The position numbers are program-made. A DNA stretch of 4,098 bases from a virus (lineage: Duplodnaviria > Heunggongvirae > Uroviricota > Caudoviricetes), in IMG/VR virus record IMGVR_UViG_2778261347_000018, one strand, 5' to 3'. Below, piece by piece: positions 3,001-4,098 of this stretch; the first letter of the stretch is position 1, and the number at the start of each line of letters is the position of its first letter.

Positions 3001-4098
3001 CAATTACACTCCAGGACCTTTCAGGTGAATGCCACGAATGAAGAGCTAACCGTTGAGTGTACGATGAATGCCGCTAAATGCCGCATGGTATCCGCTGCAT
3101 TACAGCCAGTGTGTTGAGCGACCTTATTATTCATGCGCGGTATTGTCGCCGTATTCCTGCATTAACAGAGACCGCAGCCCGACCGGGAGAATCCTCTGCG
3201 CGAGTGTGCGGGGATAATCAAAAACGATACACACCGGGGTTTACCGCGTTAACGGAGCGCGGCGTTGTCCCCTCATGGTCGCTGGTCCGGTGCGATGGTG
3301 GAAGAAGCCGGATGTTTATCACTATTAATTGATAACACAGAAATGGATTCATTGATTTTCAGCACGTTTTTGTATTCGTATTATTGAACATCTGTTTATT
3401 TTACTTTTAACATATTGATAATAAAAAGAGCTGTAAATCTTTAGATGAGTCGATTTTGTCCGGGGAAGTTCAAATGGATTTTATGCTGACGGTTTCTGGT
3501 GTGGTTATCCTGTCCATTGCTTATACTGCAGATAAATATGGCTGCCATTTGTTATCACGTATTGGCGCTTATTGCTCGTTGATGCTGATTTTCTCGTCGC
3601 TTTTTTTTGAGTAAGTTATATTAATTATAACAAATAATTTTCTGTGTTTTTTCAGGCTATCCCGTCAGACGGGAAGCCTGTACTGCCGGGGGACGAATGG
3701 AAAACTGATGTGTCCGGTAACTGTGTGTTCTGTGAACACCATGTTACTTAATTATGTAATTCATACCCGAACGCTCTGTTGACAGCCTTCTTCTGCAGGC
3801 TTCAATAACCCACGCTGAAAAGTTACCGGAACCTTTATGTTCAAGGGCGATATTGATCTGTTCAATCATGTGATTGGGGAAACGGATATTGCGGGTTGTG
3901 GTTCTGCGGGTCCGGTTTTTCGATGACATATTTATTTCCTTTACTGATTGCCATATGACGGGGATTTTACATGGCTGAGCTTCGTACACTCCAGAGCAGA
4001 ATCAAAACACTGAATACCCGACGGGTGAATATTCTGAAGGGTGAACAGCGTCGTGTCAGTGGCAGTGCACGTGTTTCCCTCAAGCGTCATATCTGGCT

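Follow-up and report, generated by a model that had tools for sequence, protein, structure and literature searches.

Does an AT-rich island in the late region of a lambdoid prophage drive a gene of its own, and what would such a gene make? The question arose from a stretch of 4,098 nucleotides of a Caudoviricetes virus, IMG/VR record IMGVR_UViG_2778261347_000018 (the whole stretch is called the window below). An initial annotation, made from the sequence alone, had described in it a promoter-like island followed by a short open reading frame (ORF) for a hydrophobic peptide of 46 amino acids (aa), which it likened to small membrane toxins or regulatory peptides. Our analysis favors a moron with its own promoter that encodes a membrane microprotein expressed in the lysogen, and we give this reading a probability of about 0.6; the peptide is probably not a growth-arresting toxin. 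The locus had been annotated before but is uncharacterised, and it is the orphan cargo of a well-known kind of element. The features on which the argument turns are the following.

3330-3473, plus strand: AT-rich promoter island and 5' leader, 29% GC
3384-3413, plus strand: best candidate sigma-70 promoter, TTGAAC-18-TAACAT, with a predicted start near 3420
3394-3428, plus strand: 35-nt block GTTTATTTTACTTTTAACATATTGATAATAAAAAG, the promoter core, unchanged across diverged copies
3462-3468, plus strand: Shine-Dalgarno (SD) sequence GGGGAAG (GAGGAAG in Escherichia coli O157:H7 Sakai), -5.7 kcal/mol with the anti-SD
3474-3614, plus strand: 46-aa ORF MDFMLTVSGVVILSIAYTADKYGCHLLSRIGAYCSLMLIFSSLFFE, with an ATG start (ECs1538 / WP_000347013.1)
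3601-3608, plus strand: T8 run at the end of the ORF, of variable length between copies

The shift to AT-rich sequence is as marked as had been claimed. GC content over 100 nt falls to 0.24-0.33 at 3301-3500, the lowest values in the window (mean, 0.48), and the change at 3330-3473 (29% versus 48% GC) is the sharpest that the window contains. Island and ORF together were found in 734 of 5,426 complete E. coli genomes (~13%), with a median of one copy each; the carriers include O157, O26, O103, O111, O121, O145 and O104:H4 strains, with the main serogroups of Shiga-toxin-producing E. coli among them. A search with the island alone returned exactly the same 734 genomes; promoter and ORF are therefore never separated. 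In 733 of the 734 the copy is at least 95% identical to that of the window (97.4% being the lowest of these in a spread sample).

More informative are the few diverged copies. The SHP24 copy (locus L003) has an overall identity of ~80%, yet the block GTTTATTTTACTTTTAACATATTGATAATAAAAAG is the same in it and in the window; in a rare third lineage, P0007, the block carries one C>G change. Two -10 candidates lie within the block, TAACAT (3408-3413) and GATAAT (3417-3422), the latter with TTTATT positioned 16 nt upstream. The -10 element of the best candidate, TTGAAC-18-TAACAT, is invariant, and its -35 element shows one change in SHP24. In a set of 52 distinct haplotypes, 20-24 sites per 100 nt vary in the island, as compared to 53-56 in the spacer 3' of the ORF.

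Expression across the island could be followed in published data. The window is 98.3% identical to prophage Sp6 of strain Sakai, and between 3300 and 3790 the two differ by one base only, in the SD sequence (G3463A). Employing the strand-specific RNA-seq and Ribo-seq of Sakai (Hücker et al. 2017, PMC5597208), whose older coordinates were converted and the offset checked on three genes, we compared plus-strand RNA on either side of the island, in reads per kilobase per million mapped reads (RPKM), for cells grown in lysogeny broth (LB), brain heart infusion (BHI) or BHI with salt in the cold.

ECs1537 (3114-3332, upstream of the island), plus-strand RNA: 3.0 in LB, 1.9 in BHI, 0.7 RPKM in BHI + 4% NaCl at 14 °C
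ECs1538 (the ORF), plus-strand RNA: 57.6 in LB, 32.7 in BHI, 2.1 RPKM in BHI + 4% NaCl at 14 °C

In the Sakai lysogen, plus-strand RNA goes up ~19-fold across the island in LB (S2 Table of PMC5597208), and that of ECs1538 drops under cold and salt stress. For two further ORFs downstream, XECs147 and XECs148, the same study reported a BPROM promoter with a linear discriminant function score of 8, among the top scores of its table; calculated from the offsets of these ORFs, this promoter maps to ~3413, in agreement with the position of TTGAAC-18-TAACAT. These results support the proposal that the island acts as a promoter driving the small gene, with a start that is predicted. The support comes from the conserved core and the published RNA-seq, not from the sequence patterns cited in the initial annotation.

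The island also contains a short repeated motif. Four copies of ATTGA(T/A)N(A/T) lie on the plus strand within 94 nt (3328, 3351, 3383 and 3414), with a spacing of about 31 nt between the last three, and the whole window has 7 copies as compared to 3.5 expected. There is overlap between the copies and the -35-like TTGA elements, and SHP24 has not kept the first copy.

The ORF was found as described, at exactly 3474-3614, as was its SD sequence, whose pairing resembles that of other genes in the window and is among the best 14% over all positions. The Prokaryotic Genome Annotation Pipeline (PGAP)/RefSeq already lists the ORF as a hypothetical protein, WP_000347013.1, and its counterpart in Sakai Sp6 is ECs_1538 / NP_309565.1, with an identical protein. 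In 60 of 60 evenly sampled genomes a PGAP 'hypothetical protein' underlies the match, and in the 4 loci that were opened this was the 45- or 46-aa ORF. Loss of the reading frame among related prophages had been named as a refuting result, and it was not observed. The frame is open in all three lineages, and the start codon and SD sequence are kept, with CGGGGAA of the latter invariant. Of the 89 copies read, 4 begin with GTG, and most have ATG. Initiation at an upstream in-frame TTG (3456) would yield 52 aa, but SHP24 has not kept the six codons thereby added; the start was therefore placed at 3474.

The substitutions show an excess of synonymous changes. Over 126 nt, SHP24 differs from the window by 25 substitutions, of which 12 are synonymous. 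The ratio of non-synonymous to synonymous rates is 0.28 in the annotated frame; the other five frames are all interrupted by stops and give 0.6-1.9. When the same substitutions were placed at random, at least 12 were synonymous in 3.8% of trials (p = 0.038), and in 2.0% the frame was also free of stops. In the segment ADKYG..LLSRIGAYC, which covers the loop and the start of the second helix described below, 5 of 7 changes are synonymous. Pooling of three branches gave 17 synonymous versus 20 non-synonymous changes with 25% synonymous expected (binomial p = 0.004), and the replacements mostly preserve hydrophobic character (V/I, S/A, M/I, L/V). This coding evidence is consistent but thin. In the Ribo-seq data for LB, the ORF showed a ribosome coverage value (RCV) of 0.46 with a coverage of 0.98, which passes the authors' threshold (PMC5597208). 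The ORF is most likely translated into a 46-residue protein. ECs1538 and WP_000347013 gave no match in full-text literature, and the peptide is not in the EDL933 translatomics supplements (PMC4765031).

The T8 run in the last codons is a potential site of slippage. A T9 variant, present in SHP24 and in locus L087, changes the end of the protein to ...LFF*, altering the last residues only. With every run length seen, a stop is reached after a few codons at most (E*, * or a short stretch of added residues); slippage therefore cannot inactivate the gene.

Modelling of the product with AlphaFold2 (AF2), on a three-sequence alignment, placed helices at residues 2-22 and 24-44 with a break at G23 (mean predicted local distance difference test score [pLDDT], 72). 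The hydropathy profile likewise has two peaks, separated by the loop ADKYGCHLLSR, and the predictor used in PMC5597208 assigned ECs1538 to the inner membrane with 2 transmembrane segments. The product is most likely, as these models suggest, a two-helix inner-membrane microprotein made in lysogens. Its only basic residues are in the loop, so by the positive-inside rule the loop would be cytoplasmic and both ends would be outside.

By sequence comparison, the peptide is an orphan family. It had no match in Pfam, PHROGs, NCBIfam or PADLOC (E <= 1) or in the sequences of the PDB; a profile search of 1.84 billion representatives returned its own family and repetitive false matches only; a word-indexed protein search returned E. 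coli entries only; no homologue was found in GTDB species genomes and no match in plasmids. IMG/VR contains 96 near-identical copies.

The initial annotation had placed the locus in a prophage accessory zone. Comparison with related phages located it in an exchangeable slot, delimited as follows.

3131-3312, strand not applicable: GC-rich non-coding backbone shared with other phages, left arm of the moron slot
About 3313-3775: exchangeable cassette (moron) with the island, the ORF, the spacer and the last ylcI codons
3744-3929, minus strand: YlcI/YnfO family gene (DUF3950; Pfam PF13132, E = 7.9e-20; NCBIfam NF041551; phrog_949)

JLK-2012 shares both arms (3131-3312 and 3775-4098, 93-94% identical) and carries between them another insert of low GC content, coding for a lipoprotein with TonB_C-like sequence; Stx1 phages share the left arm only. 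The left arm (55-60% GC) is ~94% identical in JLK-2012 and Stx1/Stx2 phages, and the homology ends at 3312/3313. In DLP12 of E. coli K-12, where it is ~80% identical, it lies between borD and ybcV. The right junction, at ~3775, is inside ylcI, such that the last ~10 residues of YlcI are ...STERSGMNYIIK here and ...ATDATHLRPASMTNNEK in JLK-2012. In K-12 the same slot is occupied by borD, ybcV and ybcW (DLP12) or by cspI, ynfQ, ynfR, ynfN and gnsB (Qin).

The left arm is always found at the left edge of the slot and may serve as a recombination arm for the exchange of cargo. No reading frame in it is common to the lineages, and a structured RNA in this part (3127-3316) was considered and dropped, there being no fold signal (z = 0.0 and +1.6). 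A 10-nt perfect inverted repeat that flanks the AT-rich segment (3334-3343 / 3639-3648) was likewise rejected as a cassette end; it is expected at about chance and is not conserved in SHP24.

The cassette occurs with two packaging modules, one with an HNH gene and HK97-like terminase and the other with lambda Nu1/A-like terminase. The ylcI gene follows the ORF in 733 of the 734 complete genomes. In the P0007 lineage, terminase genes follow island and ORF directly, without ylcI; the unit is therefore island plus ORF, and the link to ylcI is frequent but not obligatory. Taken as a whole, the region is extra DNA between conserved backbone sequences, it is replaced in related phages, and its composition is set apart from its flanks (29% GC in the island and 41% in the ORF, versus 48% in the window). 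It also has a candidate promoter of its own that is active in the lysogen, as indicated indirectly by the invariant core, RNA-seq with few reads and BPROM, with the start predicted. It is a self-contained moron in the slot between the Rz lysis genes and the ylcI/packaging genes.

Several points weigh against a promoter-gene unit. The promoter-like hexamers that had been reported are present on the plus strand (TTTTCA-17-TATTAT and, by eye, TTGAAC-18-TAACAT and TTTATT-16-GATAAT), but the number of hexamer pairs is at chance, in the island (2 versus 1.0 ± 1.1 in island shuffles) as in the whole window (5 versus 5.2 expected). The product is hydrophobic, as stated in the initial annotation, with a grand average of hydropathy (GRAVY) of 1.11, but the T content of the coding strand (43%) accounts for this completely: shuffles gave 1.06 ± 0.35, and the other two frames gave 1.45 and 0.99. 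An ATG-initiated ORF of at least 46 aa appeared in 31% of shuffles of 3300-3759. In T-rich islands, hydrophobicity, ORF length and promoter-like hexamers alone have almost no evidential weight. The coding sample is small (three lineages, 37 substitutions), and the P0007 branch alone has 5 non-synonymous versus 1 synonymous changes. As for expression, depth in BHI was tiny (~7 RNA and 4 footprint reads on the ORF), and the Sakai allele that was measured has a better SD sequence (GAGGAA) than that of the window. Out-of-frame plus-strand ORFs 3' of the stop codon showed the same range of RCV (XECs147, 0.52; XECs148, 0.37; PMC5597208); the footprints therefore do not single out the frame of the ORF. 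A canonical terminator was not found between the ORF and ylcI, and the authors of PMC5597208 predicted none. No homologue was found beyond E. coli prophages, which fits a young or possibly functionless gene.

Many of these points would also be expected if the locus had no function at all, with a spurious promoter in AT-rich acquired DNA reading into an accidental T-rich ORF and the near-identity of the copies in 733 of 734 genomes reflecting recent spread of a prophage module; orphan status, low expression and non-discriminating footprints are in line with this. What such a history does not predict is that the 35-nt block, the frame, the start and the SD sequence were kept at ~20% divergence while the adjacent spacer was scrambled, that only the annotated frame shows the synonymous excess, or that the cassette was retained with two packaging modules and in one context without ylcI. 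We consider absence of function improbable.

The promoter-gene unit also has to be weighed against a role for the RNA itself, and this depends on the region 3' of the ORF. The ORF and ylcI converge, as had been noted, with 129 nt from stop to stop, and two hairpins lie here.

3653-3680, both strands: GC-rich spacer hairpin, conserved neither in SHP24 nor in the P0007 lineage
3717-3747: hairpin over the ylcI stop codon, with a weak terminator-like site for the plus strand (hit at 3725-3739, plus strand)

The T8 run (3601-3608) was discarded as a terminator, no hairpin being found before it. Plus-strand RNA continues past the stop codon: XECs148 (about 3644-3748, plus strand) showed 50.0 RPKM in LB and 72.5 in BHI, a level similar to or higher than that of the ORF. 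The value is lower for the longer interval of XECs147 (3618-3779), so plus-strand RNA may end near 3748, as estimated from these two averaged numbers; the putative end coincides with the hairpin at 3717-3747. XECs147 and XECs148 were reported as novel translated genes in Sakai (PMC5597208). Located in the least conserved part of the cassette, they more likely reflect the 3' untranslated region of the ECs1538 transcript.

The plus-strand and ylcI transcripts appear at least to abut, and an overlap is plausible. The pair ybcW-ylcI, in the same slot of K-12, is listed as a convergent excludon by ExcludonFinder (PMC12288877), and by analogy the transcript interference with ylcI that had been suggested is plausible. 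In LB, RNA levels of ECs1538 (57.6 RPKM) and ylcI (45.6 RPKM) are alike (PMC5597208), which does not suggest mutual exclusion. The minus strand 3' of ylcI (3590-3760) is strongly structured (z = -3.8 relative to shuffles). No U-run follows either of the minus-strand hairpins, 3747-3717 and 3680-3653, and neither is conserved in SHP24.

A functional RNA could therefore be imagined in which the ORF is incidental: the plus-strand transcript would run into the 3' end of ylcI and act as an excludon-type antisense regulator, or would leave a stable structured 3' fragment. The RNA level past the stop, footprints that do not tell the ORF from downstream sequence, the lack of a terminator together with strong spacer hairpins, the K-12 precedent and the chance-level length and hydrophobicity of the ORF all favor such an RNA. 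Conservation points the other way. Nowhere else is the cassette as variable as in the spacer and 3' region; SHP24 has not kept the hairpins of this region, and the P0007 lineage, where ylcI is missing as well, has an entirely different sequence in its place; the synonymous excess is specific to the ORF frame, and the start and SD sequence are conserved. Nor does the plus transcript fold better than shuffles (z = -1.3). No Rfam match was found in the whole window (cmscan, E <= 1), and two Hfq-CRAC supplement files (PMC4104026) have no entry at the Sakai coordinates. We regard a functional RNA with an incidental ORF as unlikely, though by no means negligible.

With the promoter-gene unit retained, the likeness to small membrane toxins could be assessed. 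In the form weighed here, the peptide would be a type I-like toxin that depolarises the membrane, held in check by an antisense RNA or by convergent ylcI, and would stabilise the prophage or abort infection. A hydrophobic peptide of <60 aa that is predicted to form two helices and is encoded in a prophage accessory zone would suit it. So would the neighbour. The secondary-structure pattern of YlcI fits ribbon-helix-helix proteins, and YlcI has a weak HicB-like PHROG match (E = 0.014); the ribbon-helix-helix idea derives from these two hints. A single-sequence AF2 model of YlcI was too poor for a fold search (pLDDT 56), and YlcI had no match in a PDB sequence search. In the main lineage there is, moreover, a perfect extended -10 element, TGTTATAAT (3632 to 3624, minus strand), just past the ORF stop and oriented towards the ORF, the only strong -10 element on that strand; SHP24 has not conserved it, and the P0007 lineage has lost it by deletion.

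Other results spoke against a toxin. The hydrophobicity of the peptide is compositional; no toxin, toxin-antitoxin (TA) or defence family was matched in Pfam, PHROGs, NCBIfam or PADLOC, and no antitoxin RNA family in Rfam (whole window, E <= 1). No repeat connects the leader with upstream sequence, and the leader is short and not unusually structured. The gene is present at a median of one copy per genome, one lineage has no ylcI, and lysogens in normal growth show both RNA and ribosome footprints of the gene. To our knowledge, the known type I toxins are single-helix peptides. The toxin likeness drawn in the initial annotation is thus poorly supported, and we hold a toxin to be very improbable.

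The window as a whole is late-region DNA of a lambdoid E. coli prophage. Its other genes, in order from the left, are as follows.

260-475: class II holin
480-824: YdfR/DUF1327 gene
875-1408: lysozyme
1679-2248: P22_AR_N antirepressor-like gene (Pfam, E = 1.4e-45)
2245-2394: very hydrophobic 49-aa ORF (GRAVY 1.72; phrog_4906, E = 1.5e-30)
2402-2869: Rz, with Rz1 embedded
2893-3117: 74-aa ORF
Right of ylcI: HNH endonuclease gene, of which the start only is in the window; terminase genes come after it

The lysis cassette is broken up at 1409-2394, where an AT-rich intergenic stretch, the antirepressor-like gene and the 49-aa ORF stand between lysozyme and Rz; this segment is a second accessory insertion within the late operon. 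The ORF of the Rz1/o-spanin lipoprotein (2622-2828, plus strand) lies inside Rz in a different frame, with its lipobox present. It corresponds to ECs_1535 in the Sakai annotation, and PGAP omits Rz1 in the records inspected. In strain PV15-279 (locus L001, NZ_AP018488.1, 813-2659), IS1203 splits the lysozyme gene of the prophage; lysozyme is intact in the window.

The moron with its own promoter and a membrane microprotein could work as follows. Transcription would start near 3420-3430 from the sigma-70 promoter TTGAAC-18-TAACAT and would not depend on the late operon, hence expression of the gene in the lysogen. The mRNA would carry a leader of ~45-55 nt and a moderate SD sequence, and the translated protein, of 46 residues, would sit in the inner membrane as a hairpin of two helices, with the conserved basic loop ADKYG..LLSR facing the cytoplasm in keeping with the positive-inside rule. 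The most likely role of the microprotein would be to act on a membrane component of the host or the phage; superinfection exclusion and modulation of a membrane protein are examples. A more specific idea, which is speculative and which we think quite unlikely, is that a lysogenic-conversion microprotein blocks the entry of superinfecting DNA or tunes the timing of lysis, at a dose set by head-on transcription from ylcI; if so, the peptide and ylcI would constitute a new two-gene regulatory module of lambdoid prophages.

If the protein is made, it adds one more lysogen-expressed membrane microprotein to the prophages of Shiga-toxin-producing E. coli. Membrane microproteins of lysogens can change phage resistance, membrane physiology or the timing of lysis, and the gene is therefore a reasonable, though not urgent, candidate for knockout and tagging.

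Among known systems, the Hfq-dependent small RNAs (sRNAs) of prophages in enterohemorrhagic and enteropathogenic E. coli (AgvB, AsxR, Esr41, Pas) resemble the locus in being short transcription units in lambdoid accessory zones of pathogenic E. coli. They differ in position, the sRNAs lying 3' of PR' and 5' of the holin gene and the island and ORF after Rz. Known prophage sRNA families (AgvB, AsxR, Esr41, STnc100, Sok and others) gave 0 matches in the cmscan search of the whole window (E <= 1).

With type I TA systems (Hok/Sok, Ldr/Rdl, Ibs/Sib, TisB/IstR-1, ZorO/OrzO), the locus shares a small hydrophobic ORF on a mobile element and a possible convergent antisense transcript. Unlike them, it shows no homology to their components, has no antitoxin RNA family or conserved antisense promoter, has an unstructured leader and two predicted helices, and is single-copy and expressed in normal growth. 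In K-12, ybcW-ylcI has the same arrangement, in that the moron slot contains a small gene on the plus strand that converges on a gene of the YlcI family, whereas YbcW itself (68 aa) is unrelated to the 46-aa peptide.

Closer to the predicted product are the bacterial small membrane proteins of up to 50 aa, such as AcrZ, MgtS and CydX and the K-12 prophage proteins YnfQ/R/S/T. No sequence relationship links the peptide to them, it has two short predicted helices where one is usual, and it is known from sequence and from RNA and footprint data. Shared with them are its size, the predicted membrane helices, a lineage-restricted distribution, poor annotation and a signal in RNA-seq and Ribo-seq.

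The element as a whole is best compared with phage morons in the sense of Juhala and Hendrix, among them lambda bor 3' of Rz, borD-ybcV-ybcW in DLP12 and cspI-ynfQ-ynfR-ynfN-gnsB in Qin. It departs from these in its cargo, which has no sequence relation to bor, to ybcW or to the other named moron genes, in its product of 46 aa and in having no clear terminator. In common with them, it occupies the same slot, from the lysis genes to ylcI/ynfO/terminase, and has conserved backbone flanks, low GC content, a candidate promoter of its own and expression in the lysogen.

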